The position numbers and the translations under genes were made by a program. A stretch of 54,139 nucleotides of DNA, taken from the NCBI GenBank assembly GCA_946497905.1, contig CAMMMI010000001.1:1-54139 (forward strand), written 5' to 3'. Below the pieces are notes generated by a model that searched no databases, was not told where the DNA came from, and saw only the letters and a program-made list of their open reading frames with translations. The stretch is from an uncultured Clostridium sp. (lineage in GTDB: Bacteria; Bacillota; Clostridia; TANB77; CAG-508). Below, piece by piece: positions 6,259 to 25,493 of the stretch (its first letter is position 1; each line of letters opens with the position of its first letter).

Positions 6259-6334
6259 CGAGGCGTAGCGCAGTTGGTAGCGCGCGTGGTTTGGGACCAT
6301 GAGGTCGCAGGTTCGATCCCTGTCGCCTCGACCA
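6259..6334 (+). tRNA. tRNA-Pro (anticodon TGG); its 3' end is the integration site of the IME
   Basis: CGAGGCG acceptor, GCGC D-stem, CGTGG/CCATG anticodon stem, loop TTTGGGA, GCAGG-TTCGATC-CCTGT T-arm, CGCCTCG-A-CCA. Confidence 0.9.
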
Positions 6335-6393
6335 GAAAAAGAGACTTTTTACAAGTCTCTTAATTTGTTTTTTGGCTATTTTAAGCCTTTTTT
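6326..6393 (+). repeat. attL (tRNA-Pro 3' end + hairpin allele A + shared 20-mer)
   Basis: CCTCGACCAGAAAAAG ... AGAGAC-N9-GTCTCT ... GGCTATTTTAAGCCTTTTTT. Confidence 0.75.
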
Positions 6394-6437
6394 CTTTTCT
6401 CAAACTTTTTCAAAATTTCTCTATATTTGTGTTACTG

Positions 6438-6488
6438 CATTCAAAATTACATTCAGATTTCTACAATTGAATGTAATAATTGCATTCA
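6438..6488. promoter_or_regulatory. Candidate integrase arm-type sites, P' arm (4 x CATTCA)
   Basis: CATTCA at 6438, 6450 and 6483 (direct) and TGAATG at 6468 (inverted), all in a WGCATTCAAA / TACATTCAG context. Confidence 0.45.
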
Positions 6489-6528
6489 AATTTTATAAGC
6501 ATATAAATATTTTTTAATTATTTAAAAT

Positions 6529-6553
6529 TAGGAAAGTACAATGTACCTTCCTA
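6529..6553 (-). terminator. Terminator of the leftward IME operon
   Basis: On the minus strand: aggaaggtac-att-gtactttcct followed by a T-rich tract, 27 nt after the ABC gene stop. Confidence 0.55.
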
Positions 6554-6579
6554 ATCGAAAAAACAGTAGATTAAATGTG

Positions 6580-8403: not shown

Positions 8404-8554
8404 GTGCTTTTCCTCCTTAATTATATGTGATAGAAAAAATTTTTTACAAAGGTATGTACCTCATACTTTTATTATAGCATATTTACATAATATTTTCTAT
8501 AATTATCCAAAAAATACAACAATTGGGTTCATCTCAAAGTCATTATATTTTTAT

Positions 8555-9790
8555 TTACATTTCTTCCTCTTCATCAAACCAATCAAAACCACTAGAATTA
8601 GCTTTTTTAATTGCATATTCTTTCATAGCTTGTTTTGATAAAGTTCTATATCTTCTAATTCTTATTTTAGGTCTATGATTTATTTGTGAGTTAGAAACCA
8701 TATTGCTGATAGCAATAATCCCACCAAGAATGTTATTAACCCTGTTTTCCATTTTATTTTGGAAATCTTGCTTTTCTGTTCCTCTTCCGTTTTTTTCAAT
8801 TCTTGTTTCAAGTTGTAAAATTGATTTTTCACTTCTTGTGCCACTAATTTTTGCATTTCCTTGTTCATCTGTATATTGTCCTTTAATAATCTTTCTAGTG
8901 TATCTTGTACTTTCTTTTTCATAATTGTTATATCTTCTACTATTGCTTGTTCCATTTGATATAAATCCTTTATTATCTCTGGCTCTATTAGATAATAATC
9001 CATCTTTACTATTGATGGAACTACTTGATTTTCTTGTATTATTTGATTGTTCTTTTTCAATTCTTCTAAATTCATTTTCCATTGCTCCTTTTGAATATTT
9101 TTTATCATATAATTTATTATCTCTACACTTATATCCTTCAGGCGTTGTATATGTAATGTATTTTCTTGTATCTGTCCAATTAACTTGATAACCTAACTTA
9201 TTCATTAATTTTATAAATTGCTCTTTGTTACTACTTTCTGCCAGTGATAAATCAATTGCATTTATTAACTTAAATTTCCAACTCTTACCCTGTTCAGCAA
9301 CTCTATATTCATTTCTTTTTATGTATTGTGTATTTTCTTTTTTAGGTATAACTGAAGCTCTTATCTCTAAGCACAACTTGTCTGAATAATCTTTTAAATC
9401 TTGTAAATCCTTTTTACTCATTTGAATTTTATATCCATTTTCAAATGAAACTGAATTTACAACTAAATGATTATGCAAATGTTTTTTATCAATATGTGTT
9501 GCAACTAATACCTGGTATCCATTGAATTTTTCTGCTAATCTAATACCGGTATTATGAACTTGTTCTGCAGATAAATTATCTTTTGGGGCAAATGATTGAA
9601 TAATATGAATATACTGTCTGCCATTATTCTTGTTATATAATTCTTTTGTATATAACATTTCTTCTAAACTACTTTCAGCTAAACAATCTTTTCCTGTTAT
9701 CAAATTAGCATTTGTTTTCTTGTCTTGTGTAACATAGTTTATAATTGTTTTTAAGTTTGCTTTTGAACTAATTGCTTCAATAATTGCCAT
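8555..9790 (-). CDS. Relaxase / mobilization nuclease (MobA/VirD2-type, MOBQ-like)
   Basis: N-terminal relaxase motifs: HIIQSFAP, and a His cluster HIDKKHLHNHLVVNSV. The start overlaps the mobC 3' end by 40 nt. Low-complexity C-terminal half with an acidic tail DWFDEEEEM. Confidence 0.85.
   Translation of the reverse strand: MAIIEAISSKANLKTIINYVTQDKKTNANLITGKDCLAESSLEEMLYTKELYNKNNGRQYIHIIQSFAPKDNLSAEQVHNTGIRLAEKFNGYQVLVATHIDKKHLHNHLVVNSVSFENGYKIQMSKKDLQDLKDYSDKLCLEIRASVIPKKENTQYIKRNEYRVAEQGKSWKFKLINAIDLSLAESSNKEQFIKLMNKLGYQVNWTDTRKYITYTTPEGYKCRDNKLYDKKYSKGAMENEFRRIEKEQSNNTRKSSSSINSKDGLLSNRARDNKGFISNGTSNSRRYNNYEKESTRYTRKIIKGQYTDEQGNAKISGTRSEKSILQLETRIEKNGRGTEKQDFQNKMENRVNNILGGIIAISNMVSNSQINHRPKIRIRRYRTLSKQAMKEYAIKKANSSGFDWFDEEEEM
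8680..9075 (-). CDS. Nested MobB-like ORF in an alternative frame inside the relaxase gene (coiled-coil + C-terminal TM helix)
   Basis: 142-aa ORF, of which 131 aa follow the second Met, preceded by AAAGGAG-9 nt-ATG. Non-degenerate, coiled-coil-like sequence ending in TGLITFLVGLLLSAIWFL. Confidence 0.45.
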   Translation of the reverse strand: MNLEELKKNNQIIQENQVVPSIVKMDYYLIEPEIIKDLYQMEQAIVEDITIMKKKVQDTLERLLKDNIQMNKEMQKLVAQEVKNQFYNLKQELKKTEEEQKSKISKIKWKTGLITFLVGLLLSAIWFLTHK

Positions 9791-9978
9791 ATATTATTCA
9801 CTTCCATTCGCAGTTCTTTCAAGTCAACTACTGTAATTATTTTTTCATTTGCAAGTCTTGTTAATTGATTAATATTATTTCCTATTCTTCGAAGCTCACT
9901 ATCTACTTTATCTAGTCCTTTTACTATAATAATTTTATCTTTTAAACACGAACTTACAATAAATTTTGTAATTGTCAT
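9751..9978 (-). CDS. mobC: MobC-family relaxosome accessory protein (the annotated ORF lacks its RHH N-terminus; see finding)
   Basis: LRRIGNNINQLTRLAN matches the MobC NxNQ motif. There is no SD before ATG 9978, while a strong GAGGAGG SD precedes an out-of-frame ATG at 10058. Confidence 0.75.
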   Translation of the reverse strand: MTITKFIVSSCLKDKIIIVKGLDKVDSELRRIGNNINQLTRLANEKIITVVDLKELRMEVNNIWQLLKQLVQKQT

Positions 9979-10114
9979 ATTACATTTCTTTGCTTTTGAT
10001 TCAATTATGCTTTTTCTTTTTCAGTTAATCGTATATTTATTTTCTTATCTTTGGGCATTCTATTCCTCCTCGTTTTCCCTAAAACAAATTAAAGGGGTTT
10101 GGGTTCTCCCAAGT

Positions 10115-10163
10115 TTGCAAGCTCTATTTGTAGTACTTGTACTTACAAATAGGAAGCTTGCAA
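10115..10163. promoter_or_regulatory. Candidate oriT inverted repeat
   Basis: TTGCAAGCTCTATTTGTA - 11 nt - TACAAATAGGAAGCTTGCAA, located between int and mobC. Confidence 0.45.
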
Positions 10164-10180
10164 TACTATATATTTGGTAT

Positions 10181-11359
10181 TTAATTACTGTTATTCACAA
10201 AATTTAATTGGTTATTATTTAAATAAGTATTTACCTTTTCAAGTTCATTTTCTTTAAATTTATTAAACACAGATGTGTATGTATTTAAAGTTACAGTTAC
10301 ATCTTTGTGTCCCATTAATCTTTGCAAAACGACTGCTGTCATTCCTGCTTCAATACATCTTGTTCCATAAGTATGTCTTAAACAATGGGTACTAATATTT
10401 TTTGAATCTACATTTAATTCTTCTTTGAAAATTCTTTTTAGTTCTTTATTAATTGCAGATGTTCTTATATAACTATCATTATTTGTAAATATTAAATTGT
10501 GTAAATTTTCATTTGTATATTTTAATTGTTCCTCAAAAATTGGAACTAAAAAATCTGGTATAGGTAAAGTTCTATTACCTGAATACGTTTTTGTCTTATT
10601 TCCTAAAATAATGGCAAATTCTTTGTCATTTGTTAGTGTTCTCTTAACATATAAAAGTTTATTTTCTAAATCAATATTTTCTTTGCTTAATGCAAGTACT
10701 TCGCCTATTCTTAATCCCATATACATTTGTAGTAAAAATATATTTTTATATGGTTCGTTTTCTATTGAAACTTTATTCAAATATTGTGTAAATTCTTTTT
10801 GCACATTGATATTTAATGCTTCAACCACTTTTGTTTGTTTATTACTTTTAGGTTTTATAACTTCATACATTGGGTTATATGAAATGTATTTTTTTATTTC
10901 TGCTCTACGATATGCTTGTACAAATTGTTCATAAATTTTCTTGATATACGAATCACTTAAATCTTTAATAGAATTTAAAAATTCTTGAATATCATCTTTG
11001 GTTATATCCTGTATTTTCATATTTCCAATATTGCTATTTTTAATTTTATTGATAGTCCATTTTAATCTAGCATATTGACCACCTGAAATTGTATTAGATG
11101 CCAATTTTTCTTCTCTTATATCTTCCATAATTTTTACTAATTTAATTCCATTTTTTTCTATATACATGTCATTATTCATTTTATATTTAATCTCATTTAA
11201 TTTATTTATGACCTCTTTTTGAGTCTTTCCATATACTGATTTTCTAATGACTTTTCCATCTACAGATGTTCCATATATATATTGACCAATCCATCTTTTA
11301 TTTTTCTTATCTTCAAATATTGTGCCTTCGCCATTTCCTCTTCTTCTTTTTCTCTTCAT
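10181..11359 (-). CDS. int: Tyrosine recombinase / site-specific integrase
   Basis: N-terminal arm-binding-like GNGEGTIFEDKKNKRWIGQ. Catalytic region LRIGEVLAL ... HCLRHTYGTR ... LMGHKDVTVTLNTYTSV (R-H-R-Y pattern). Confidence 0.9.
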   Translation of the reverse strand: MKRKRRRGNGEGTIFEDKKNKRWIGQYIYGTSVDGKVIRKSVYGKTQKEVINKLNEIKYKMNNDMYIEKNGIKLVKIMEDIREEKLASNTISGGQYARLKWTINKIKNSNIGNMKIQDITKDDIQEFLNSIKDLSDSYIKKIYEQFVQAYRRAEIKKYISYNPMYEVIKPKSNKQTKVVEALNINVQKEFTQYLNKVSIENEPYKNIFLLQMYMGLRIGEVLALSKENIDLENKLLYVKRTLTNDKEFAIILGNKTKTYSGNRTLPIPDFLVPIFEEQLKYTNENLHNLIFTNNDSYIRTSAINKELKRIFKEELNVDSKNISTHCLRHTYGTRCIEAGMTAVVLQRLMGHKDVTVTLNTYTSVFNKFKENELEKVNTYLNNNQLNFVNNSN

Positions 11360-11371
11360 AATTTTGACCTC

Positions 11372-12175
11372 CTATTTTGCAAGTTCATTAACCAAACTTG
11401 AAATATAATATTCTATTATGTTTTCGATATTTTTATTTTTTAAGATATTACCAAATACTTTTTCTAGTATAGGTAAAGTTACTTTTTCCAATAATTCTCC
11501 CTGTTTATTATCGTATAACCTTTTTACTGCCAATTGATATAGTTTTATTTGAGTTAGTACACTTTTTGGTAAGTACTCTGAGTTTTCAAAATATATTTTC
11601 TTTTGTTTAAAAATTACATTATATTTTGCTGTTTCTTTTTGAACTAAATTTGTTTTATTTAATTTTAAATTAATTAAATCTAATCCATCATTCAATCCAT
11701 TATTTTCTATATCTTCATCTATCTCTATATCTAACTCTTTATCTATATCTATCTCTTGTGGACTATTTGGTAGACATTGTCCACTTAATAATTTCTGCTT
11801 TTCTCTTTGTTCTCTTTTTTGTTTTGCCCAACCAGTTTCACTACCTACCATATTTTCAAATCCAGCTATTTTTAAACAAATTCCATCATCTGTATAAATT
11901 AAATTTAGTTTTTTAAATAGTTCCATAGCAACTATAACAGTATCTTTACTAAAATATTTAGTATCTCTTACTATTTTTTCTGGATCATAGGGAATAATCA
12001 TTTCTCCAACTCGTGATGCTAATTCTCCATTATTATTAGCAGTTTGTAGGCATAGCATTTGATACAAAACGATATACTGACAACCATCTTTTTGTGATAA
12101 TAAGAAATCTATTTCGGCTAAATTAAAGAAATCAGTTTTTAATTTTATCCAATAATATCTTTTTGTTTTTTCCAT
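11372..12175 (-). CDS. Phage-replisome-organizer N-terminal-domain protein (putative IME replication initiator)
   Basis: RYYWIKLKTDFFNLAEIDFLLSQKDGCQYIVLYQMLCLQTANNNGEL matches the Phage_rep_org_N pattern. Acidic repeat linker EIDIDKELDIEIDEDIE. Confidence 0.7.
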   Translation of the reverse strand: MEKTKRYYWIKLKTDFFNLAEIDFLLSQKDGCQYIVLYQMLCLQTANNNGELASRVGEMIIPYDPEKIVRDTKYFSKDTVIVAMELFKKLNLIYTDDGICLKIAGFENMVGSETGWAKQKREQREKQKLLSGQCLPNSPQEIDIDKELDIEIDEDIENNGLNDGLDLINLKLNKTNLVQKETAKYNVIFKQKKIYFENSEYLPKSVLTQIKLYQLAVKRLYDNKQGELLEKVTLPILEKVFGNILKNKNIENIIEYYISSLVNELAK

Positions 12176-12334
12176 AATTTACTCACTTTCCAGTATTTCT
12201 ACTTAATTTTCTATTGTTAAAAATAAGGAAAAATGATATACTATTTATATAAAGATTGCGAATATCTTTATGTGGCATTTGTGCAAAAGTCTGCTCGACA
12301 AAGTGTACTTTTGTATAAATGCTTTTTAAATTTT

Positions 12335-12580
12335 TCATATAACATCAATCCTTTTTTCCATCTTCCACAGAATATAAGCAATTTTTTGTATTTTTCTTGT
12401 TTTGCCAATATTCACAGATGGAAAATCTGCACGATTAAATATTTCGTTTGTTTTGTTTTCTCCCATATACAAATCTTTTGCTACATCTTTTACAGTTAGC
12501 ATTTTAAATGGGTCATCTAAGCTCTTTATAGCTTGTTTTACTAATTCTTTCTTAAGTTCTTCACTAAAATTTTCATTCAT
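12335..12580 (-). CDS. Excisionase-family / MerR-like HTH DNA-binding protein
   Basis: LTVKDVAKDLYMGENKTNEIFNRADFPSVNIGKTRKIQKIAYILW resembles HTH_17 excisionase-type proteins. First gene of the leftward operon. Confidence 0.65.
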   Translation of the reverse strand: MNENFSEELKKELVKQAIKSLDDPFKMLTVKDVAKDLYMGENKTNEIFNRADFPSVNIGKTRKIQKIAYILWKMEKRIDVI

Positions 12581-12608
12581 AATTTTGTCCTCCTTTGAAA
12601 TTTCTATA

Positions 12609-12839
12609 ATCCATTTTGGATACTTAATAAGTAAAAAAATAAATCTTATTCATATTTTTATTTTTATAGCATACCTCCTTTCAAATTTATCTGTATCCGT
12701 TTTGGATATTTATATAATAATCCAAAATGGATATATTGTCAATACCTTTTTCAAAATTTTTTAAACTTTCTAAAACTTTTATATAAAAAATATTTAATTT
12801 TCAACGATTATTGACTTTCCAAAATGGATATGATAAAAT
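12609..12839. promoter_or_regulatory. Divergent promoter/operator switch region of the IME
   Basis: Leftward promoter TTGACA(12742-12737)-17-TATTAT(12719-14). Rightward promoter TTGACT(12811-16)-17-TAAAAT(12834-39). Four ATCCAWWWWGGATA-type palindromes at 12609, 12695, 12720 and 12817; the last two fill the promoter spacers. Confidence 0.65.
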
Positions 12840-12869
12840 TTAAACATAAATTGAGAAGGAGAAAAAATT

Positions 12870-13619
12870 ATGACAAATGGCGAAAGAATAAAGTATTTAA
12901 GAGAAAAAAATGGATTTACTCAAAAAGATATTGCTACAAGATTAGGAGTAGAACCTGCAGCAATATCAAAATATGAATTAGATATGAGAGAGCCAAATAT
13001 AGAAGCAATAAAAAAACTAGCTACAATTTTTAATGTTTCAATAGATTATTTACTTGGAAGAACACCAGATGTTTTTGTAGATGAAACAAATAGAGATACA
13101 CTTGATATATCTGCTATTAAAGACAAATATAACTTTACAAAAAAGAGAATGGATAAAGTAAAAGAAATCTATAAAAATGATACTACACTAAGCACAGCAA
13201 TAAACGAATTATGTTGTGGTGTAGGAAAAACTACTTTTGGACAAACTATAACAAATACAAATATTTCAATGCTAGAAATAGAAAGCATGTTTAATGATTT
13301 TGAAAACAGCAAAGATCCTAAACCACAAATTATAATGAAAGTTAAAAATTTAGAAAATAGTATTATAATTGTTGAGATTGATTCTTTTGATGATGAAGAA
13401 ATGCCACTTGATGCAACTGATAGAATTGCTTTATATACTACAAAATTATCACAAAAATATAATGTGCTTGGTTTAGTAATGACAATTGATAAAGATGAAA
13501 ATTGTAAAATTATAGATGCTATATATCAAAAAAATAAAGATACTTATTATACTCAATTACATTTGCCTAAAACAGTATTAACTGCTGGAGAGTATATTGA
13601 TATAATGAGTAGATTATAG
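12870..13619 (+). CDS. XRE-family HTH regulator with an uncharacterised ~170-aa C-terminal domain
   Basis: GAAGGAG RBS. N-terminus MTNGERIKYLREKNGFTQKDIATRLGVEPAAISKYELDMREPNIEAIKKLATIFNVSIDYLLGR is a typical HTH_3. No motif recognised in the C-terminal part. Confidence 0.8.
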   Translation: MTNGERIKYLREKNGFTQKDIATRLGVEPAAISKYELDMREPNIEAIKKLATIFNVSIDYLLGRTPDVFVDETNRDTLDISAIKDKYNFTKKRMDKVKEIYKNDTTLSTAINELCCGVGKTTFGQTITNTNISMLEIESMFNDFENSKDPKPQIIMKVKNLENSIIIVEIDSFDDEEMPLDATDRIALYTTKLSQKYNVLGLVMTIDKDENCKIIDAIYQKNKDTYYTQLHLPKTVLTAGEYIDIMSRL

Positions 13620-13635
13620 GAAGGAGTAAATCTTA

Positions 13636-15312
13636 ATGGAAGATTCAGAACTTAAACAAATATTATTTTCATTATTAAAAAATGATGAAAATGAGTGTAT
13701 AGAATATAAAGAAGCAAATAATAGTTTTGATTTTGAAAAACTCGGAAAATATTTTTCTGCATTGAGTAATGCTGCTAACTTGGTTGGAAAGCAATATTCA
13801 TGGTTAATCTTTGGAATTAAAGATAAAACTCACGAGTTTGTTAATACTAAATATAGAAACAATGGAAATTTGAATAAGTTAAAAAAAGAAATTACAAAAG
13901 GAACTAACGATGGAATTACTTTTTTGGATATTTTTGAATTATTTGTAGAAGATAATAAAAGAGTAATAATGTTTAAAATACCAGCAGCTATGGGAATTCC
14001 CACAACATGGAGAGGATTTGCTTATGATAGAAATGATGAGGATTTAGTCCCTTTAAATCAAATGAAATCTGATCAAATTAAGTCAACAATGAATTTCGAT
14101 TGGTCAAGACAGATTATAGAAAGTTTGACAGTAGATGATTTAGACAAAGAAGCCATTTTAAAAGCAAGAGAACAATTTAAAAAGAAAAATGAAGATAAAG
14201 AAATTGCTAAAGAAGTGGATAATATGGATGATATTACATTTCTAAATAAAGCGAAGGTTTTATTAAATGGTAAAGTGACTCGTACAGCTTTACTATTACT
14301 TGGAAAAGAAGAAAATAGTTATTTGTTTGAAGATTTTATTCCGCAAATAACGTGGAAATTACAAGAGAATGGAGAAATTTTAGATTATGAACACTTTACA
14401 ATTCCATTTTTAGTAAATGTTGAAAAAGCAAAAAATAAAATTAGAAATTTAAGATATAGATATATGGTTAATGAAATAACATTATTTCCCAACGAAGTGG
14501 ATCAATATGATAATTATACTTTAAGAGAGTTATTAAACAATGCAATCGCTCATCAAGATTACAGAAAACATGGTAGAATAAATATATTAGAAATGAAAGA
14601 AAAATTAATTTTTATAAATGAAGGAAGTTTTATTCCTCAAAATGTTGACAAATTTTTACTAGATGAAAGTTATGTTCCTCCATATTATAGAAATCCGTTT
14701 TTAGCAAATGCTATGGTTAATTTAAATATGATTGATACTGCTGGAAGTGGCATAAGAAGAGTATTTAATAATCAAAAGCAAAAATTCTTTCCTATGCCAG
14801 ACTATGATTTATCAGTAGAGGGAAGAGTAAAAGTAACTTTGTATGGAAAAATATTAGATGAAAAATATACAAAAATGCTTTTTGAAAAAACTGATTTAGA
14901 TATTGGTATTGTAATGCTTTTAGATAGAGTTCAAAAAGGAATACATATAGCAAAGCAGGAGTCTGATTTATTAAAAAAAGAAAAATTAGTAGAAGGAAGA
15001 TATCCAAACTTATATATTTCTAAAGAAATTTCAGAAATAACAGATGAAAAAGCAAAATATATAAAAAATCGTGGATTAAGTAATGATATGTATAAACAAA
15101 TGATAGTAGAATTGATAAAGACATATGGTAAAGCAACAAGAAATGAAATAAATGATTTGTTACTTGATAAAATGCCAGAATTCTTATCTGAAGATAAGAA
15201 AAAAAGAAGGATTAAATATTTATTAATTGAATGTTTGCAAAATAAAGAGAAAAAAATAAAAAATATTGGAAGTCGTACAAATTCTATATGGGTTTTAAAT
15301 AAAGATGATTAA
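13636..15312 (+). CDS. AlbA_2 (Schlafen-like) + HATPase_c_4 / RecG-C-like putative DNA-binding protein
   Basis: N-terminus ECIEYKEANNSF...ALSNAANLVGKQYSWLIFGIKD (AlbA_2 pattern). Central LRELLNNAIAHQDYRKHGRINILEMKEKLIFINEGSF (HATPase_c_4 pattern). GGAGTAA RBS 16 nt after the XRE stop. Confidence 0.7.
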   Translation: MEDSELKQILFSLLKNDENECIEYKEANNSFDFEKLGKYFSALSNAANLVGKQYSWLIFGIKDKTHEFVNTKYRNNGNLNKLKKEITKGTNDGITFLDIFELFVEDNKRVIMFKIPAAMGIPTTWRGFAYDRNDEDLVPLNQMKSDQIKSTMNFDWSRQIIESLTVDDLDKEAILKAREQFKKKNEDKEIAKEVDNMDDITFLNKAKVLLNGKVTRTALLLLGKEENSYLFEDFIPQITWKLQENGEILDYEHFTIPFLVNVEKAKNKIRNLRYRYMVNEITLFPNEVDQYDNYTLRELLNNAIAHQDYRKHGRINILEMKEKLIFINEGSFIPQNVDKFLLDESYVPPYYRNPFLANAMVNLNMIDTAGSGIRRVFNNQKQKFFPMPDYDLSVEGRVKVTLYGKILDEKYTKMLFEKTDLDIGIVMLLDRVQKGIHIAKQESDLLKKEKLVEGRYPNLYISKEISEITDEKAKYIKNRGLSNDMYKQMIVELIKTYGKATRNEINDLLLDKMPEFLSEDKKKRRIKYLLIECLQNKEKKIKNIGSRTNSIWVLNKDD

Positions 15313-15345
15313 ATATTTAAAATTTTCTAATTTTAAAAAATGATT

Positions 15346-15526
15346 GGCCGAAATTCAAAAAAATCCGGCCGAATTCTAAAAATATTCGGCCGAATTCCGG
15401 ACAAAAATCAGCCGAAATTCAAAAAAATCCGGCCGAATTCTAAAAATATTCGGCCGAATTCCGGGCGAATATCGGCCAAAATTCAAAAAAGTCCGGCTGA
15501 ATTCTAAAAATATTCGGCCGAATTCT
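15346..15526. repeat. GC-rich iteron array: 3 x 64-bp units = 9 x (C)GGCCGAA(A)TTC sites
   Basis: Site starts at 15346, 15367, 15388, 15410, 15431, 15452, 15474, 15495 and 15516, giving spacings of 21,21,22,21,21,22,21,21. Confidence 0.8.
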
Positions 15527-15606
15527 AAGCAGAAATTAATAAATTTAAAATTACAAATTTTGTAAAATCATAAATAAGCTTATGATATATTTTTCAATAT
15601 CCACAA

Positions 15607-15798
15607 TTAATTATTTTTAGTAAGTATTTCTTCTTCATATCCATCATCATATACCCAATGTATGTATTTAAAATCTCCACCAATTCTTGTATATTCATTT
15701 CCACCATCAATTGAACATGCCCCACATTTACATTTTTTATAATCGTGAACACTTAAAGATTCAATTATATCATTACATTTTAAGCATCTAATTTTCAT
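15607..15798 (-). CDS. Small Cys-rich zinc-ribbon-like protein (63 aa)
   Basis: GAGGTGG RBS. CxxC (CLKCN) and CKCGAC motifs. Last gene before the att site. Confidence 0.6.
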   Translation of the reverse strand: MKIRCLKCNDIIESLSVHDYKKCKCGACSIDGGNEYTRIGGDFKYIHWVYDDGYEEEILTKNN

Positions 15799-15869
15799 AA
15801 TTTTTCCACCTCTTATAGCTTTTCTTTAAGACAATTATACAAACATTTAAAAAATTTTTCAATAAAATT

Positions 15870-15896
15870 CATTCAACTGCATTCAAACTACATTCA
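15870..15896 (+). promoter_or_regulatory. Candidate integrase arm-type sites, P arm (3 direct CATTCA)
   Basis: CATTCA at 15870, 15880 and 15891 (10-11 bp spacing), about 55 bp from the tRNA-end repeat. Confidence 0.45.
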
Positions 15897-15949
15897 AAAA
15901 ATGTCGAATTGCTAGAAAATAGGTAATTCTCAAAAGTAAATTCTCCTCA

Positions 15950-16017
15950 CCTCGACCAGAAAAAGGAGCTTTTTACAAGCTCCTTAAATTGTTTTTAGGC
16001 TATTTTAAGCCTTTTTT
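15950..16017 (+). repeat. Inter-copy junction = reconstituted attP (hairpin allele B)
   Basis: CCTCGACCAGAAAAAG ... AGGAGC-N9-GCTCCT ... GGCTATTTTAAGCCTTTTTT, flanked by element sequence on both sides. Confidence 0.75.
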
Positions 16018-16061
16018 CTTTTCTCAAACTTTTTCAAAATTTCTCTATATTTGTGTTACTG

Positions 16062-16112
16062 CATTCAAAATTACATTCAGATTTCTACAATTGAATGTAA
16101 TAATTGCATTCA
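16062..16112. promoter_or_regulatory. Arm-type sites, P' arm, copy 2
   Basis: Identical to 6438-6488 (+9624). Confidence 0.45.
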
Positions 16113-16152
16113 AATTTTATAAGCATATAAATATTTTTTAATTATTTAAAAT

Positions 16153-16177
16153 TAGGAAAGTACAATGTACCTTCCTA
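16153..16177 (-). terminator. Terminator of the leftward operon, copy 2
   Basis: Identical to 6529-6553 (+9624). Confidence 0.55.
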
Positions 16178-16203
16178 ATCGAAAAAACAGTAGATTAAAT
16201 GTG

Positions 16204-18027
16204 TTAAATCTCTTTTACTAAATTAAATTCTCCAGCCTTTGCAAACTGTAAGTTTCTAAATGTGTACTCATTAGCAAGTTTACTTTTGAATCCATCAATG
16301 TTTTGGTGAGTTGAAATAATTACAATTCGTTTTTTATCCGAGTTAGCATACCTCACAATGTACTCCAAAATTTTTTCTGCATCAGCAGAATCAGATTCCG
16401 TCTTATCATCAAGACCTGATGTACATTCATCCAAAACAATAACATCAATTTCATCATCTAACCAGTATAGCATCTTTGCAAGAATAAGTCTCTGTTTCTG
16501 TCCATTTGAAAGCGACTGCTCAAATTGTTTTTCTTTCATCCATTTCCATACATCAAAGCAATTAGATTTTATTTCACACCACAAATGGAGATTCTCTAAA
16601 ATCTTTTGCATTTTTGCAAGATCTGGATTCTCATTACAACAGAACAGCTCTTCAAAAATACTCAAACTACCAAACTTCAACTTTTCATCATAGAACAAAA
16701 ATCGTGATGTCGAGGGTATCTCTGTACTCTTTTCCAATCTGATTCTTTCGGTTAACATCTTCATAAATGTCGATTTACCACTACCAGATGGTCCGTACAG
16801 AATAACAACCTCTCCGTTATTAATGTGTATCTGCTTTTTTGAAATTAATGTGAAAGGTTTATCGTTCTCGGATTCCTCCAAATACTGAATCGAGAATGGA
16901 TTTATTCTTATATTGTCAACAATTTTAGGTATAGAAACCTTTGCAGATTCATTATGATACACATCTAAAATTAATGACATATCCTTTTCTTCTTTTTCCA
17001 GTATGATTAACCTTTCATTGTGATTGTTCAAAGTTTCAGCAATTCTGCTAATCTGTCCTAATGCTGTTTCAACAATCAGAAGTGTTGCAGTAATTTCTGT
17101 TATAGTAGCTAAATTGATACTACTCCACTCGACTCCTAACAGATAGAATATTATAATTCCATACTGACTAAGTGCTTCCATTATTGTTACAAATAATCTC
17201 GACAAATTCATCTTCTTGTGGAACTTTGTAACATTCTCATTGCTCGCAATAACAGTCTTTTGAAATTTATTGATTCTCATATCCAAGTCATCTTTGACAA
17301 TTACAGGAACACGAAGTAAATCATTTACTATCAAAGACTGTTCGTTGTTATACTCTCTGTGTTTCTTATAATATGCTTCTCTATTCAAACTAATATATGC
17401 TGAACTAAAGAAAGAAATAAGCACAAATATGAAAATCAGAGGAATAAAAACAACTTGTGAAATAGATGTGTTGGTTATTATGGCTACAGCTAGCATAATT
17501 ATTACACTAATCATTTCAAATACATCAAATGTATGTTGAATTTTCTGTCGCCACAGATTTTGCAAATAGTTCTTAATAGTATTTAACACCGATTCATTGC
17601 TCATTACTTTATACAATTTATTTGATGTGTTATACTTCAAAACCTTATTTGCTGTCTTGCCGATGATTTGACTACCTCTGAATACAATTTCATCCTCAAA
17701 AATGAGTTCAAATTTCTTGTTTTCAGAGCTTTCAAAAAGATAAAATGCTTCCCTTACAACTTGCTGCCCACGATATAACATAAATAATATGATTCCAAGC
17801 AAAATCAACCTGTACTCAATCATCATGTTTGTCGCTTTAAGCATAAATGCAAAAACAAGGGCGATTACGGTCATTCCCAGATTCATGAAACCCACTTTAA
17901 ATCCCATCCGCTTTACACTTTCAGGAATAATGAGCATCTCATCTGATAAACCATATGGCTTGAAGAACTTAATAATGAGATTTATCACCTCCCGAATTAA
18001 ATTTTTCAATTTTTCCTGTCCTTTCAT
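16204..18027 (-). CDS. TMD-fused ABC ATPase, copy 2
   Basis: Translation identical to 6580-8403. Confidence 0.8.
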   Translation of the reverse strand: MKGQEKLKNLIREVINLIIKFFKPYGLSDEMLIIPESVKRMGFKVGFMNLGMTVIALVFAFMLKATNMMIEYRLILLGIILFMLYRGQQVVREAFYLFESSENKKFELIFEDEIVFRGSQIIGKTANKVLKYNTSNKLYKVMSNESVLNTIKNYLQNLWRQKIQHTFDVFEMISVIIMLAVAIITNTSISQVVFIPLIFIFVLISFFSSAYISLNREAYYKKHREYNNEQSLIVNDLLRVPVIVKDDLDMRINKFQKTVIASNENVTKFHKKMNLSRLFVTIMEALSQYGIIIFYLLGVEWSSINLATITEITATLLIVETALGQISRIAETLNNHNERLIILEKEEKDMSLILDVYHNESAKVSIPKIVDNIRINPFSIQYLEESENDKPFTLISKKQIHINNGEVVILYGPSGSGKSTFMKMLTERIRLEKSTEIPSTSRFLFYDEKLKFGSLSIFEELFCCNENPDLAKMQKILENLHLWCEIKSNCFDVWKWMKEKQFEQSLSNGQKQRLILAKMLYWLDDEIDVIVLDECTSGLDDKTESDSADAEKILEYIVRYANSDKKRIVIISTHQNIDGFKSKLANEYTFRNLQFAKAGEFNLVKEI

Positions 18028-18178
18028 GTGCTTTTCCTCCTTAATTATATGTGATAGAAAAAATTTTTTACAAAGGTATGTACCTCATACTTTTATTATA
18101 GCATATTTACATAATATTTTCTATAATTATCCAAAAAATACAACAATTGGGTTCATCTCAAAGTCATTATATTTTTAT

Positions 18179-19414
18179 TTACATTTCTTCCTCTTCATCA
18201 AACCAATCAAAACCACTAGAATTAGCTTTTTTAATTGCATATTCTTTCATAGCTTGTTTTGATAAAGTTCTATATCTTCTAATTCTTATTTTAGGTCTAT
18301 GATTTATTTGTGAGTTAGAAACCATATTGCTGATAGCAATAATCCCACCAAGAATGTTATTAACCCTGTTTTCCATTTTATTTTGGAAATCTTGCTTTTC
18401 TGTTCCTCTTCCGTTTTTTTCAATTCTTGTTTCAAGTTGTAAAATTGATTTTTCACTTCTTGTGCCACTAATTTTTGCATTTCCTTGTTCATCTGTATAT
18501 TGTCCTTTAATAATCTTTCTAGTGTATCTTGTACTTTCTTTTTCATAATTGTTATATCTTCTACTATTGCTTGTTCCATTTGATATAAATCCTTTATTAT
18601 CTCTGGCTCTATTAGATAATAATCCATCTTTACTATTGATGGAACTACTTGATTTTCTTGTATTATTTGATTGTTCTTTTTCAATTCTTCTAAATTCATT
18701 TTCCATTGCTCCTTTTGAATATTTTTTATCATATAATTTATTATCTCTACACTTATATCCTTCAGGCGTTGTATATGTAATGTATTTTCTTGTATCTGTC
18801 CAATTAACTTGATAACCTAACTTATTCATTAATTTTATAAATTGCTCTTTGTTACTACTTTCTGCCAGTGATAAATCAATTGCATTTATTAACTTAAATT
18901 TCCAACTCTTACCCTGTTCAGCAACTCTATATTCATTTCTTTTTATGTATTGTGTATTTTCTTTTTTAGGTATAACTGAAGCTCTTATCTCTAAGCACAA
19001 CTTGTCTGAATAATCTTTTAAATCTTGTAAATCCTTTTTACTCATTTGAATTTTATATCCATTTTCAAATGAAACTGAATTTACAACTAAATGATTATGC
19101 AAATGTTTTTTATCAATATGTGTTGCAACTAATACCTGGTATCCATTGAATTTTTCTGCTAATCTAATACCGGTATTATGAACTTGTTCTGCAGATAAAT
19201 TATCTTTTGGGGCAAATGATTGAATAATATGAATATACTGTCTGCCATTATTCTTGTTATATAATTCTTTTGTATATAACATTTCTTCTAAACTACTTTC
19301 AGCTAAACAATCTTTTCCTGTTATCAAATTAGCATTTGTTTTCTTGTCTTGTGTAACATAGTTTATAATTGTTTTTAAGTTTGCTTTTGAACTAATTGCT
19401 TCAATAATTGCCAT
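18179..19414 (-). CDS. MOBQ-like relaxase, copy 2
   Basis: Translation identical to 8555-9790. Confidence 0.85.
   Translation of the reverse strand: MAIIEAISSKANLKTIINYVTQDKKTNANLITGKDCLAESSLEEMLYTKELYNKNNGRQYIHIIQSFAPKDNLSAEQVHNTGIRLAEKFNGYQVLVATHIDKKHLHNHLVVNSVSFENGYKIQMSKKDLQDLKDYSDKLCLEIRASVIPKKENTQYIKRNEYRVAEQGKSWKFKLINAIDLSLAESSNKEQFIKLMNKLGYQVNWTDTRKYITYTTPEGYKCRDNKLYDKKYSKGAMENEFRRIEKEQSNNTRKSSSSINSKDGLLSNRARDNKGFISNGTSNSRRYNNYEKESTRYTRKIIKGQYTDEQGNAKISGTRSEKSILQLETRIEKNGRGTEKQDFQNKMENRVNNILGGIIAISNMVSNSQINHRPKIRIRRYRTLSKQAMKEYAIKKANSSGFDWFDEEEEM
18304..18699 (-). CDS. Nested MobB-like ORF, copy 2
   Basis: Identical to 8680-9075 (+9624). Confidence 0.45.
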   Translation of the reverse strand: MNLEELKKNNQIIQENQVVPSIVKMDYYLIEPEIIKDLYQMEQAIVEDITIMKKKVQDTLERLLKDNIQMNKEMQKLVAQEVKNQFYNLKQELKKTEEEQKSKISKIKWKTGLITFLVGLLLSAIWFLTHK

Positions 19415-19602
19415 ATATTATTCACTTCCATTCGCAGTTCTTTCAAGTCAACTACTGTAATTATTTTTTCATTTGCAAGTCTTGTTAATTGATTAATATT
19501 ATTTCCTATTCTTCGAAGCTCACTATCTACTTTATCTAGTCCTTTTACTATAATAATTTTATCTTTTAAACACGAACTTACAATAAATTTTGTAATTGTC
19601 AT
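19375..19602 (-). CDS. mobC: MobC-family protein, copy 2
   Basis: Translation identical to 9751-9978. Confidence 0.75.
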   Translation of the reverse strand: MTITKFIVSSCLKDKIIIVKGLDKVDSELRRIGNNINQLTRLANEKIITVVDLKELRMEVNNIWQLLKQLVQKQT

Positions 19603-19738
19603 ATTACATTTCTTTGCTTTTGATTCAATTATGCTTTTTCTTTTTCAGTTAATCGTATATTTATTTTCTTATCTTTGGGCATTCTATTCCTCCTCGTTTT
19701 CCCTAAAACAAATTAAAGGGGTTTGGGTTCTCCCAAGT

Positions 19739-19787
19739 TTGCAAGCTCTATTTGTAGTACTTGTACTTACAAATAGGAAGCTTGCAA
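19739..19787. promoter_or_regulatory. Candidate oriT inverted repeat, copy 2
   Basis: Identical to 10115-10163 (+9624). Confidence 0.45.
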
Positions 19788-19804
19788 TACTATATATTTG
19801 GTAT

Positions 19805-20983
19805 TTAATTACTGTTATTCACAAAATTTAATTGGTTATTATTTAAATAAGTATTTACCTTTTCAAGTTCATTTTCTTTAAATTTATTAAACACAGATGT
19901 GTATGTATTTAAAGTTACAGTTACATCTTTGTGTCCCATTAATCTTTGCAAAACGACTGCTGTCATTCCTGCTTCAATACATCTTGTTCCATAAGTATGT
20001 CTTAAACAATGGGTACTAATATTTTTTGAATCTACATTTAATTCTTCTTTGAAAATTCTTTTTAGTTCTTTATTAATTGCAGATGTTCTTATATAACTAT
20101 CATTATTTGTAAATATTAAATTGTGTAAATTTTCATTTGTATATTTTAATTGTTCCTCAAAAATTGGAACTAAAAAATCTGGTATAGGTAAAGTTCTATT
20201 ACCTGAATACGTTTTTGTCTTATTTCCTAAAATAATGGCAAATTCTTTGTCATTTGTTAGTGTTCTCTTAACATATAAAAGTTTATTTTCTAAATCAATA
20301 TTTTCTTTGCTTAATGCAAGTACTTCGCCTATTCTTAATCCCATATACATTTGTAGTAAAAATATATTTTTATATGGTTCGTTTTCTATTGAAACTTTAT
20401 TCAAATATTGTGTAAATTCTTTTTGCACATTGATATTTAATGCTTCAACCACTTTTGTTTGTTTATTACTTTTAGGTTTTATAACTTCATACATTGGGTT
20501 ATATGAAATGTATTTTTTTATTTCTGCTCTACGATATGCTTGTACAAATTGTTCATAAATTTTCTTGATATACGAATCACTTAAATCTTTAATAGAATTT
20601 AAAAATTCTTGAATATCATCTTTGGTTATATCCTGTATTTTCATATTTCCAATATTGCTATTTTTAATTTTATTGATAGTCCATTTTAATCTAGCATATT
20701 GACCACCTGAAATTGTATTAGATGCCAATTTTTCTTCTCTTATATCTTCCATAATTTTTACTAATTTAATTCCATTTTTTTCTATATACATGTCATTATT
20801 CATTTTATATTTAATCTCATTTAATTTATTTATGACCTCTTTTTGAGTCTTTCCATATACTGATTTTCTAATGACTTTTCCATCTACAGATGTTCCATAT
20901 ATATATTGACCAATCCATCTTTTATTTTTCTTATCTTCAAATATTGTGCCTTCGCCATTTCCTCTTCTTCTTTTTCTCTTCAT
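19805..20983 (-). CDS. int: Tyrosine integrase, copy 2
   Basis: Translation identical to 10181-11359. Confidence 0.9.
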   Translation of the reverse strand: MKRKRRRGNGEGTIFEDKKNKRWIGQYIYGTSVDGKVIRKSVYGKTQKEVINKLNEIKYKMNNDMYIEKNGIKLVKIMEDIREEKLASNTISGGQYARLKWTINKIKNSNIGNMKIQDITKDDIQEFLNSIKDLSDSYIKKIYEQFVQAYRRAEIKKYISYNPMYEVIKPKSNKQTKVVEALNINVQKEFTQYLNKVSIENEPYKNIFLLQMYMGLRIGEVLALSKENIDLENKLLYVKRTLTNDKEFAIILGNKTKTYSGNRTLPIPDFLVPIFEEQLKYTNENLHNLIFTNNDSYIRTSAINKELKRIFKEELNVDSKNISTHCLRHTYGTRCIEAGMTAVVLQRLMGHKDVTVTLNTYTSVFNKFKENELEKVNTYLNNNQLNFVNNSN

Positions 20984-20995
20984 AATTTTGACCTC

Positions 20996-21799
20996 CTATT
21001 TTGCAAGTTCATTAACCAAACTTGAAATATAATATTCTATTATGTTTTCGATATTTTTATTTTTTAAGATATTACCAAATACTTTTTCTAGTATAGGTAA
21101 AGTTACTTTTTCCAATAATTCTCCCTGTTTATTATCGTATAACCTTTTTACTGCCAATTGATATAGTTTTATTTGAGTTAGTACACTTTTTGGTAAGTAC
21201 TCTGAGTTTTCAAAATATATTTTCTTTTGTTTAAAAATTACATTATATTTTGCTGTTTCTTTTTGAACTAAATTTGTTTTATTTAATTTTAAATTAATTA
21301 AATCTAATCCATCATTCAATCCATTATTTTCTATATCTTCATCTATCTCTATATCTAACTCTTTATCTATATCTATCTCTTGTGGACTATTTGGTAGACA
21401 TTGTCCACTTAATAATTTCTGCTTTTCTCTTTGTTCTCTTTTTTGTTTTGCCCAACCAGTTTCACTACCTACCATATTTTCAAATCCAGCTATTTTTAAA
21501 CAAATTCCATCATCTGTATAAATTAAATTTAGTTTTTTAAATAGTTCCATAGCAACTATAACAGTATCTTTACTAAAATATTTAGTATCTCTTACTATTT
21601 TTTCTGGATCATAGGGAATAATCATTTCTCCAACTCGTGATGCTAATTCTCCATTATTATTAGCAGTTTGTAGGCATAGCATTTGATACAAAACGATATA
21701 CTGACAACCATCTTTTTGTGATAATAAGAAATCTATTTCGGCTAAATTAAAGAAATCAGTTTTTAATTTTATCCAATAATATCTTTTTGTTTTTTCCAT
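20996..21799 (-). CDS. Replisome-organizer-domain protein, copy 2
   Basis: Translation identical to 11372-12175. Confidence 0.7.
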   Translation of the reverse strand: MEKTKRYYWIKLKTDFFNLAEIDFLLSQKDGCQYIVLYQMLCLQTANNNGELASRVGEMIIPYDPEKIVRDTKYFSKDTVIVAMELFKKLNLIYTDDGICLKIAGFENMVGSETGWAKQKREQREKQKLLSGQCLPNSPQEIDIDKELDIEIDEDIENNGLNDGLDLINLKLNKTNLVQKETAKYNVIFKQKKIYFENSEYLPKSVLTQIKLYQLAVKRLYDNKQGELLEKVTLPILEKVFGNILKNKNIENIIEYYISSLVNELAK

Positions 21800-21958
21800 A
21801 ATTTACTCACTTTCCAGTATTTCTACTTAATTTTCTATTGTTAAAAATAAGGAAAAATGATATACTATTTATATAAAGATTGCGAATATCTTTATGTGGC
21901 ATTTGTGCAAAAGTCTGCTCGACAAAGTGTACTTTTGTATAAATGCTTTTTAAATTTT

Positions 21959-22204
21959 TCATATAACATCAATCCTTTTTTCCATCTTCCACAGAATATA
22001 AGCAATTTTTTGTATTTTTCTTGTTTTGCCAATATTCACAGATGGAAAATCTGCACGATTAAATATTTCGTTTGTTTTGTTTTCTCCCATATACAAATCT
22101 TTTGCTACATCTTTTACAGTTAGCATTTTAAATGGGTCATCTAAGCTCTTTATAGCTTGTTTTACTAATTCTTTCTTAAGTTCTTCACTAAAATTTTCAT
22201 TCAT
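21959..22204 (-). CDS. Excisionase-family HTH protein, copy 2
   Basis: Translation identical to 12335-12580. Confidence 0.65.
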   Translation of the reverse strand: MNENFSEELKKELVKQAIKSLDDPFKMLTVKDVAKDLYMGENKTNEIFNRADFPSVNIGKTRKIQKIAYILWKMEKRIDVI

Positions 22205-22232
22205 AATTTTGTCCTCCTTTGAAATTTCTATA

Positions 22233-22463
22233 ATCCATTTTGGATACTTAATAAGTAAAAAAATAAATCTTATTCATATTTTTATTTTTATAGCATACCT
22301 CCTTTCAAATTTATCTGTATCCGTTTTGGATATTTATATAATAATCCAAAATGGATATATTGTCAATACCTTTTTCAAAATTTTTTAAACTTTCTAAAAC
22401 TTTTATATAAAAAATATTTAATTTTCAACGATTATTGACTTTCCAAAATGGATATGATAAAAT
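22233..22463. promoter_or_regulatory. Divergent promoter/operator switch, copy 2
   Basis: Identical to 12609-12839 (+9624). Confidence 0.65.
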
Positions 22464-22493
22464 TTAAACATAAATTGAGAAGGAGAAAAAATT

Positions 22494-23243
22494 ATGACAA
22501 ATGGCGAAAGAATAAAGTATTTAAGAGAAAAAAATGGATTTACTCAAAAAGATATTGCTACAAGATTAGGAGTAGAACCTGCAGCAATATCAAAATATGA
22601 ATTAGATATGAGAGAGCCAAATATAGAAGCAATAAAAAAACTAGCTACAATTTTTAATGTTTCAATAGATTATTTACTTGGAAGAACACCAGATGTTTTT
22701 GTAGATGAAACAAATAGAGATACACTTGATATATCTGCTATTAAAGACAAATATAACTTTACAAAAAAGAGAATGGATAAAGTAAAAGAAATCTATAAAA
22801 ATGATACTACACTAAGCACAGCAATAAACGAATTATGTTGTGGTGTAGGAAAAACTACTTTTGGACAAACTATAACAAATACAAATATTTCAATGCTAGA
22901 AATAGAAAGCATGTTTAATGATTTTGAAAACAGCAAAGATCCTAAACCACAAATTATAATGAAAGTTAAAAATTTAGAAAATAGTATTATAATTGTTGAG
23001 ATTGATTCTTTTGATGATGAAGAAATGCCACTTGATGCAACTGATAGAATTGCTTTATATACTACAAAATTATCACAAAAATATAATGTGCTTGGTTTAG
23101 TAATGACAATTGATAAAGATGAAAATTGTAAAATTATAGATGCTATATATCAAAAAAATAAAGATACTTATTATACTCAATTACATTTGCCTAAAACAGT
23201 ATTAACTGCTGGAGAGTATATTGATATAATGAGTAGATTATAG
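22494..23243 (+). CDS. XRE-family regulator with unknown C-terminal domain, copy 2
   Basis: Translation identical to 12870-13619. Confidence 0.8.
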   Translation: MTNGERIKYLREKNGFTQKDIATRLGVEPAAISKYELDMREPNIEAIKKLATIFNVSIDYLLGRTPDVFVDETNRDTLDISAIKDKYNFTKKRMDKVKEIYKNDTTLSTAINELCCGVGKTTFGQTITNTNISMLEIESMFNDFENSKDPKPQIIMKVKNLENSIIIVEIDSFDDEEMPLDATDRIALYTTKLSQKYNVLGLVMTIDKDENCKIIDAIYQKNKDTYYTQLHLPKTVLTAGEYIDIMSRL

Positions 23244-23259
23244 GAAGGAGTAAATCTTA

Positions 23260-24936: not shown

Positions 24937-24969
24937 ATATTTAAAATTTTCTAATTTTAAAAAATGATT

Positions 24970-25150: not shown

Positions 25151-25230
25151 AAGCAGAAATTAATAAATTTAAAATTACAAATTTTGTAAAATCATAAATA
25201 AGCTTATGATATATTTTTCAATATCCACAA

Positions 25231-25422: not shown

Positions 25423-25493
25423 AATTTTTCCACCTCTTATAGCTTTTCTTTAAGACAATTATACAAACATTTAAAAAATTTTTCAATAAAATT

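Follow-up and report, generated by a model that had tools for sequence, protein, structure and literature searches.

A direct-repeat array behind a Schlafen-GHKL-winged-helix gene in a mobilizable element of an uncultured Clostridium: a predicted docking site that is exchanged together with its gene

Introduction

What does a phased array of nine GC-rich direct repeats serve when it lies just behind the gene of a Schlafen-type protein in a mobile element? The question is raised by contig CAMMMI010000001.1 (assembly GCA_946497905.1) of an uncultured Clostridium sp., of which positions 1 to 54,139 were analysed; this whole stretch of 54,139 nucleotides is called the window below. It carries an integrative mobilizable element (IME) with a gene for a 558-amino-acid (558-aa) protein, followed by the array. 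According to the original prediction, the array is an origin or partition-like site bound either by the 267-aa replisome organizer of the element (rep gene, 11372-12175) or by the adjacent 558-aa protein. Comparison with related elements and genes points in another direction. The array is very probably tied in function to the Schlafen gene and not to replication of the IME, and it is probably a cis-linked docking array cognate to the protein encoded upstream.

That bacterial Schlafens act against phages by cutting tRNA was shown only in 2025-2026. In the prokaryotic Schlafens (pSlfn) described by Taboada et al. (Nat Microbiol 2026, PMC13056530), combinations of a Schlafen domain with a GHKL domain are the commonest reported compositions, 34% without and 19% with an annotated helix-turn-helix (HTH) domain. 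No trigger is known for these compositions, and the two HisKinase-type proteins that were tested gave no defence phenotype (PMC13056530).

Results

Structure and uniqueness of the array

Tandem Repeats Finder (TRF) confirmed a tandem array at 15336-15528, with a 64-bp period (2.8 copies, 93% matches, 15347-15525) and a 21-bp sub-period (9.1 copies over 15336-15528). The nine sites start at 15346, 15367, 15388, 15410, 15431, 15452, 15474, 15495 and 15516, and both these positions and the repeated 21/21/22-bp spacing are exactly as first described. The three 64-bp units of that description correspond to a real 64-bp period, with the qualification that the third unit measures only 51 bp. Each site consists of G/C-rich bases, the core GCCGAA(A)TTC and an A-tract spacer; GGCCGAA(A)TTC is present at six of the nine sites, the other three being degenerate (AGCCGAAATTC, GGCCAAAATTC and GGCTGAATTC). 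With a mean of 21.3 bp the spacing comes near two turns of the helix, and the sites therefore lie roughly on one face of the DNA. The first site begins 34 bp past the stop codon of the 558-aa gene. No other 181-bp segment of the element is as rich in GC as the array (40.3% compared with 26.7% element-wide), and both points agree with the earlier description.

The motif is practically private to the arrays. Allowing at most one mismatch, GGCCGAAWTTC has 12 matches in the window, all of them within the two array copies, while shuffled sequences give an expectation of 0.34. Over the entire assembly of 1.63 Mb, GCCGAATTC has 11 occurrences, ten of them in the two arrays and one elsewhere. A blastn search of the array against PLSDB plasmids and INPHARED phages gave no match. 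A pattern scan of IMG/VR for two phased sites returned 0 matches and so gave no hint of decoy arrays carried by phages. The pattern GCCGAATTC-N11-13-GCCGAAWTTC gave 120 matches in metagenomes, all unrelated, mostly in GC-rich coding sequence and with no homolog of the gene nearby.

Gene and array as one cargo cassette

A 9624-bp element is present in the window as two head-to-tail copies (6323-16079 versus 15947-25703). The element encodes an ABC-type ATPase, a MobA/VirD2 relaxase, MobC, a tyrosine integrase, the 267-aa protein with a Phage_rep_org_N domain (Rep267), a Xis-like open reading frame (ORF), an XRE repressor, the 558-aa protein and a convergently oriented DUF7695 protein; the array sits between the two convergent genes. 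The Xis-like ORF is small and without a family match, its name resting on its size and its position beside the integrase and rep genes. This gene content identifies the element as an IME.

Homologs of Rep267 were found in 19 other genomes of the genus, and ten sibling IMEs with Rep proteins of 79-96% identity were compared with the window. The rep-xis-xre core is common to all ten, and relaxase, mobC and int are also found in the nine that are not cut by a contig end; this conserved backbone corresponds to window positions ~8550-13650. None of the ten carries the 558-aa gene, and GGCCGAA and CGGCCG are absent from all ten within about 9 kb; the search for the motif in related elements that was proposed along with the origin reading thus came out negative. 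In or beside the corresponding slot (13655-15630) the siblings carry genes for Fic and an unknown 441-aa protein, for AbiTii, for AIPR or for a RepA_N-type protein. The IME family appears to shuttle defence-type cassettes.

The most informative sibling is L134 (Rep identity 96%), where the slot is occupied by a different Schlafen-GHKL gene (486 aa, PF04326 and PF13749), with about ten 11-bp TTGAACAGT repeats immediately behind it and then the same DUF7695 gene. The Schlafen gene is thus replaced together with the array in L134. Gene and array make up one cargo unit of ~2 kb in a variable slot of a tRNA-Pro-integrated IME, outside the replication and transfer backbone.

As a separate observation, the slot following the XRE gene is a hot spot of variable cargo in siblings L133-L141, equivalent to window positions 13655-15875.

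Linkage of gene and array in relatives

Within the genus, a short direct-repeat array starts 5-40 bp past the stop codon of every 558-aa homolog for which the DNA behind the gene was available (17 other genomes, 53-98% identity). The motifs are specific for clades and include GGCCGAATTC, AGTATCGGATAA, AGTTTGGACGAA, ATCGCCGAAA, TTCACTGAG, TCTAAAGAGAAT, AGTCACTGTAAA and TTTGCTGC. A scan of GTDB genomes gave 80 homolog loci (39-98% identity) from metagenome-assembled genomes of gut Bacillota, from Bacteroidota (Flavobacterium, Chitinophaga, Chryseobacterium, Capnocytophaga), from Akkermansia and from Burkholderiales. Defining an array as an exact 8-mer that occurs at least three times within 200 bp, and using 65 de-duplicated loci of Bacillota, Bacteroidota and Akkermansia, arrays were found behind 75% of the homologs, upstream of 2%, and behind 5% of 248 other ORFs in the same loci (Wilcoxon 9e-10, Mann-Whitney 2e-24). 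Arrays directly 3' of the stop codon are also visible in distant phyla and consist of four copies of CTRCGATTGA or four copies of GATTTATGA in Akkermansia, and of three to four copies of TTTAGATGAAC or TTTAGACGAAC in Bacteroidota. The sites start about 12-35 bp past the stop, the first site lying at a median distance of 12 bp.

Two loci deviate in position. In L071 and L089 the downstream array is absent and an array lies 0-250 bp upstream of the start codon, formed by ~5 copies of GTTCTACATTT and by four copies of the 21-bp unit AAAAATGCTGTGGTGAGAGCA, respectively; the linkage to the gene thus seems conserved while the position of the array can shift. The module is also found in chromosomal surroundings, for example ahead of hsdR-like and tsaD genes, which were recognised by eye.

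The number of sites varies among close relatives. Proteins that are 92%, 98% and 96% identical to the window protein are accompanied by about 1, about 6 and about 6-7 sites, compared with nine in the window, and the amplified unit differs by lineage (22 bp, 42 bp and, in the window, 64 bp). These differences indicate that the arrays expand and contract quickly.

On contig C8 of the same assembly (~26000-27200, minus strand) a paralogous HATPase_c_4/winged-helix ORF is followed at once by three copies of TGTCACAG at 11-12-bp spacing. This ORF has just 205 codons and seems to continue upstream in another frame.

Covariation of the array with the protein tail

Among the homologs, conservation is high over the first ~460 residues, and the sequence varies in the last ~70-100. 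Array similarity, expressed as shared repeated 7-mers, was correlated with identity of the tail in a partial Mantel test that controlled for the N-terminal 495 residues (r = 0.32, p = 0.001). The same relation is visible in 98 pairs of proteins that are at least 85% identical over these 495 residues. All 51 pairs with tails of at least 85% identity share array k-mers, compared with 4 of the 26 pairs whose tails are less than 70% identical. In the 29 swap pairs with unrelated arrays, the differences are concentrated in residues 461-558 (23-55% per 20-residue bin, compared with 2-23% in the rest of the protein); this region differs by only 2-9% in 45 pairs that have the same array. The positions that switch most often are K495, L510, I531, E532, Q535, R547, N549 and I551, mostly located in the recognition helix and the wing. 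A natural example is given by proteins with GTATCGGATAA-type and ATCGCCGAAA-type arrays that are 97% identical outside the tail.

Array identity, as judged from these comparisons, is a property that tracks the last ~100 residues, i.e., the winged helix. The gene and its array are passed on, exchanged and diversified as a pair. The proposal that the adjacent 558-aa protein binds the array, one of the two options originally considered, is in this respect supported by co-occurrence in relatives, by covariation of motif and tail and by helical phasing. We have good confidence in the prediction that the C-terminal winged helix contacts the array directly.

The 558-aa protein

The translation contains E18-NECI-E23-Y-K25, in agreement with the Ex4(E/D)xK catalytic motif as defined for Schlafens (PMC13056530). 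In set A2 the conservation of E18, E23 and K25 reaches at least 90%, and the GHKL residues N302, D367, G370 and G372 are invariant. Homologs with 64-83% identity carry PF04326 and PF13749; the window protein itself stays below the PF04326 threshold (E ≤ 0.01 not reached). NCBIfam gave no match, PADLOC only a weak partial match to Argonaute-associated models, and a sequence search of the PDB nothing useful.

The fold search was informative. An AlphaFold2 (AF2) model, with a mean predicted local distance difference test score (pLDDT) of 85.5, was matched by Foldseek over its full length to DIP2311 (3lmm, E = 7e-20). The N-terminal domain resembles SLFN11 (7zel, probability 0.97), the middle part resembles PDK and the ATP-binding (CA) domains of histidine kinases, and the tail resembles winged-helix DNA binders (2vqc, probability 0.99; 8ylg, a complex of MftR with its operator). 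The topology of the modelled tail, H483-497 / b499-501 / H502-512 / H519-537 / b541-543 / b551-554 with pLDDT 81-95, is that of a canonical winged helix (H-b-H-H-b-b), in which residues 519-537 form the recognition helix and residues 541-554 the wing. The 558-aa protein is a member of the pSlfn class called HisKinase-HTH or Schlatpase-HTH and shows all three sequence and structure features of that class. A role of the window protein in tRNA cleavage or phage defence is putative, and is suggested here by the defence-type cargo (AbiTii, AIPR, Fic) in the slot of the sibling IMEs.

Recognition as DNA

In 52 arrays the copy-to-copy spacings cluster at 10-12, 20-22, 31-32 and 41-43 bp, which are multiples of the helical repeat (~10.5 bp). 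Together with the fact that specificity resides in a winged-helix domain, this quantisation argues for recognition of duplex DNA. No flip of array orientation was found within a tail class.

The tandem dimer and other features

The coordinates of the features are collected in Table 1. The two IME copies are internally identical, and all 19 differences are confined to the three 133-bp att repeats (6323-6455, 15947-16079 and 25571-25703), which show an attL / attP-like / attR pattern. An autonomous replication phase, which had been invoked to help explain the dimer, is for this reason not needed. The middle junction is of the element type on either side (attP-like), which fits a true tandem as well as an excised circle folded into the assembly. 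The hairpin following the tRNA gene exists in a chromosomal version, AAAAAGAGACT...AGTCTCTT, and an element version, AAAAAGGAGCT...AGCTCCTT, and the changes between them are compensatory, from which it follows that the element carries a tRNA-Pro terminator of its own type. Between the array and the DUF7695 gene lies an AT-rich inverted repeat, ATCATAA-N6-TTATGAT, possibly a weak bidirectional terminator. Elsewhere in the window, TRF detected an intergenic AT-rich tandem repeat at 47144-47306 (51 bp, 3.2 copies, 91% matches).

Table 1. Positions of the array, the Schlafen gene and associated features (window coordinates unless a locus name is given)
Feature	Position	Strand	Remark
IME copy 1 with 133-bp att repeat	6323..16079	+	Integrated at the 3' end of tRNA-Pro(tgg)
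IME copy 2	15947..25703	+	
Variable cargo cassette, 558-aa gene and array	13655..15630	+	blastn boundaries versus ten sibling elements; absent or replaced there
558-aa Schlafen(AlbA_2)-GHKL ATPase-winged-helix gene	13636..15312	+	Predicted array binder
Schlafen RNase catalytic motif Ex4ExK, codons E18-K25 (E18, E23, K25)	13687..13710	+	Read from the translation
GHKL (HATPase_c_4) ATP-binding domain, residues 314-402	14575..14841	+	PF13749, E = 6.9e-11
C-terminal winged helix, codons 483-556, variable specificity tail	15082..15303	+	AF2, Foldseek, differences in swap pairs
Array copy 1, nine direct-repeat sites	15346..15526	+	Core GCCGAA(A)TTC
First 64-bp super-unit, three diverged 21/21/22-bp sites (types a, b, c)	15347..15410	+	TRF period 64
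Second 64-bp super-unit	15411..15474	+	94% identity to unit 1
Third super-unit, truncated, 51 bp	15475..15525	+	
GC-rich hairpins, 8-9 bp, 9-nt loops	15366-15398, 15430-15462, 15494-15526	minus	
AT-rich inverted repeat ATCATAA-N6-TTATGAT	15569..15588	.	Between array and DUF7695 gene
Second 558-aa gene copy	23260..24936	+	Identical to the first
Array copy 2	24970..25150	+	Identical to copy 1; in the second element copy
L134 TTGAACAGT array	L134:5560-5690	minus	Downstream of the 486-aa gene, L134:5683-7143

Discussion

A possible mechanism

If the array is the docking site of the Schlafen protein, the winged-helix tails would sit head to tail on the GCCGAA(A)TTC cores, roughly on one DNA face and once every two turns. 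The DNA-binding domain is translated last and the sites lie just past the stop codon, so that nascent protein could load in cis; newly made protein would then occupy the very DNA that encodes it. The array might hold or oligomerise an ATP-switched tRNase in a DNA-bound resting state and so form a control platform for a potentially toxic effector. That its role is such sequestration, rather than purely transcriptional control, is a tentative view to which we give somewhat less than even weight. A narrower version, which we consider unlikely, is that the array acts as a DNA guard or antitoxin, with the cis-loaded Schlafen-GHKL protein kept inactive as a DNA-scaffolded oligomer. Loss of or damage to the array DNA would then free the protein, leading to ATP-driven assembly and tRNA cleavage. 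Such an event could be brought about by a phage that degrades or remodels the DNA of its host, or by the mobile element being lost. If this were true, one gene and a non-coding array would make up a complete sensor-effector or addiction module.

Several observations weigh against the assignment of the array as a docking site. The association of gene and array is clade-specific and not family-wide: in a class-wide sample of PF13749 proteins arrays occurred in 3 of 30 loci only, and among three paralogs in the genome itself one has TGTCACAG three times past its stop codon and two (contigs C31 and C47) have no array. The notion of an array for every HATPase_c_4 gene was rejected on the basis of the class-wide sample. 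The p-values for enrichment overstate independence since the sequences are related. A downstream position is unusual for an operator. The source is a metagenome-assembled genome from short reads, so the count of repeat units may be wrong through mis-assembly or collapse. Furthermore, the stretch from the stop codon to the array gave no consensus terminator in the terminator scan; the repeats are for this reason probably transcribed and may have a role as RNA. Sites 2+3, 5+6 and 8+9 can pair as 8-9-bp hairpins, in RNA or in DNA (RNA fold z = -6.6).

Alternative explanations

The alternative that survives best, and which we still regard as rather unlikely, is a self-operator, i.e., an array bound by the protein only for control of its own transcription, either as a roadblock of read-through or convergent DUF7695 transcription or through looping to the promoter, with the nuclease activity unaffected. 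The comparative evidence for cognate binding applies to it equally, the location between convergent genes suits a roadblock, and in L071 and L089 the array is found on the upstream side. The strong preference for the downstream side (75% of loci, against ~2% upstream) argues against it, however. Moreover, the motif is absent from the promoter region of the 558-aa gene, with no copy near the candidate promoters at 12811-12839 and 13578-13606, and the 9-14 sites far exceed what a roadblock needs.

It is much less probable that the array is a centromere or maintenance site, a counterpart of sopC, parC or parS, for which the 558-aa protein would act as a ParB-, SopB- or initiator-like protein of its own cassette by means of the GHKL ATPase. 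The order of gene and array resembles that of sopB-sopC and parB-parS, placing the array beside the gene of a candidate binder, and helical phasing, cis linkage and a cognate, fast-evolving specificity would also fit. Against this, the Schlafen RNase motif Ex4ExK is retained, and relatives with the same supradomain are tRNase defence effectors or growth restrictors (PMC13056530; 10.64898/2026.05.29.728809; TrlG, 10.1101/2020.06.02.129163). A Pfam scan of all ORFs of the element revealed no ParA, ParM or TubZ partner; besides the 558-aa protein, the only NTPase is the 607-aa ABC-type protein, which is encoded 5 kb away in another variable slot. The existence of chromosomal copies of the module and the maintenance of sibling IMEs that have no array also speak against a centromere, and the partition-like site of the original prediction finds no support here.

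A function of the repeats at the RNA level has about the same low probability, perhaps slightly lower. Once transcribed, the repeats could act on the two convergent genes in the form of 3' stem-loops or terminators, or the repeat RNA could partner the nuclease as in type III toxin-antitoxin systems. The folding potential and the lack of a consensus terminator ahead of the array would fit such a role, as would the constant orientation of arrays relative to the gene within a tail class. Read on the minus strand, every hairpin has a T-run behind it and looks like a terminator for the convergent DUF7695 gene; the loop limit of 8 nt in the terminator scan caused these hairpins with 9-nt loops to be missed. 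The closely related locus with one site lacks the hairpins, and the TTGAACAGT, GTTTGGACGAA and TTCACTGAG arrays of other clades are not self-complementary. Because the hairpins are absent from the single-site relative and from these non-palindromic arrays, the hairpin potential is treated as a local by-product, or at most as a secondary terminator function. Spacing in helical turns and specificity that follows the winged helix are not expected for an RNA element, and the units, at 10-22 nt, fall far short of the ~36 nt of ToxI-type repeats and lie downstream instead of upstream.

The iteron-type origin bound by the 267-aa replisome organizer, which was the first choice of the original prediction, is highly improbable. 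Its appeal is understandable: nine direct repeats of the appropriate length (at least three of ~17-22 bp in helical register being typical) occur in two-turn phasing, the flanks are AT-rich in an element of 73% A+T, an 8/9 DnaA-box match is located at 15597-15605, the Phage_rep_org_N gene is 3.2 kb away, and the element is a tandem dimer. Yet the array is not conserved together with the initiator. The ten siblings have Rep proteins of 79-96% identity and the same backbone but no array motif, the array is replaced along with the Schlafen gene in L134, a relative with 92% identity has a single site, and 78 of the 80 homolog loci have no Rep267 homolog within 3 kb (two do). The DnaA-box argument was rejected, as the window has 23 such matches where 19.8 are expected by chance; the closest relative (98% identical protein) has ATATCTACA at the position of the DnaA-box-like sequence. 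A better origin candidate, to judge from its conservation, lies inside the rep gene on the minus strand (11690-11800), where the inverted repeat GTGGACA-A-TGTCCAC is followed by 5-8 GATAGA/GATATAGA repeats (TRF TCTATA, 8.5 copies). This cluster is kept in all ten siblings, and the inverted repeat is exact in eight of ten, with 7 bp per arm in siblings and 6 of 7 paired in the window copy. Some phage replisome-organizer genes carry the origin inside the gene.

A functionless, slippage-prone minisatellite hitch-hiking beside the gene, as might be read from the variable site number (about 1, 6, 6-7 and 9) and the recent expansion indicated by 93% identical 64-bp units, has a negligible probability in view of the same array position across phyla despite complete sequence turnover and the covariation with the protein tail.

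Comparison with known systems

As a predicted cognate docking array, the repeats resemble several DNA and RNA elements with a neighbouring gene. The iterons of theta plasmids (P1 RepA/incC, F ori2, R6K, pPS10) are direct repeats of ~21-22 bp, two helical turns, beside the gene of a winged-helix protein, with cognate and fast-evolving specificity. The array described here shares the two-turn repeats, the adjacent winged-helix-protein gene and the type of specificity; it differs in that it is not conserved with the Rep of the element, in that the predicted partner is a nuclease-ATPase and no initiator, and in that many arrays of the family have 11-bp units. In sopB-sopC of F, parB-parS of P1 and parC of R1, a helically phased tandem-repeat centromere lies beside the gene of its binder and is coated cooperatively. 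Similar to these, the phased repeats are found directly downstream of or beside the gene of the candidate binder, but there is no partition NTPase, loci are also chromosomal, sibling IMEs can do without the array, and the protein has an RNase active site. The target just 3' of its own coding sequence is reminiscent of RepA-CIS-oriR of R1, in which this location favours capture of the nascent protein and CIS stalls transcription. In R1 the target is the origin, whereas cis-loading in the present case is suggested by geometry (the median of 12 bp). The type III system ToxIN likewise couples tandem repeats to a ribonuclease gene. Its repeats of ~34-36 nt are structured RNA and lie upstream of the RNase gene with a terminator between; the units in the window are 21 bp (10-22 bp in relatives), downstream, phased as DNA and covarying with a winged helix, so that the features of a type III system are not found.

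Within the Schlafen proteins, RzAgo (SLFN-pAgo) has the same Schlafen-GHKL module and provides a precedent for a resting state that is scaffolded by nucleic acid: nucleic-acid-dependent filaments keep the nuclease off and ATP-driven tetramerisation activates it (10.64898/2026.05.29.728809). The scaffold of RzAgo is guide RNA on an Argonaute core, unlike the duplex-DNA array and winged helix proposed here. TrlG, a stand-alone relative, causes conditional growth restriction (10.1101/2020.06.02.129163). The closest counterparts are the pSlfn HisKinase-HTH and Schlatpase-HTH proteins and DIP2311 (3lmm), with the same order of an AlbA_2 domain with Ex4ExK, a GHKL domain (PF13749) and a C-terminal winged helix, and, as with many pSlfn members, the gene travels as cargo beside other defence-type genes. 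The published HTH domain is without a known ligand, whereas here a candidate cognate ligand adjoins the gene. Text searches of PMC13056530, 10.64898/2026.05.29.728809 and the TrlG paper found no mention of gene-linked repeat arrays. With the array, a known class of defence proteins gains a cis component that is new and unpublished. With this comparison the array is reassigned from the origin of a mobile element to a part of a swappable defence cassette. A private, co-evolving array gives the HTH sensor a concrete candidate ligand along with matched protein-DNA pairs, and it may explain failures of Schlafen constructs that were cloned without flanks, if the flanks carry such arrays.

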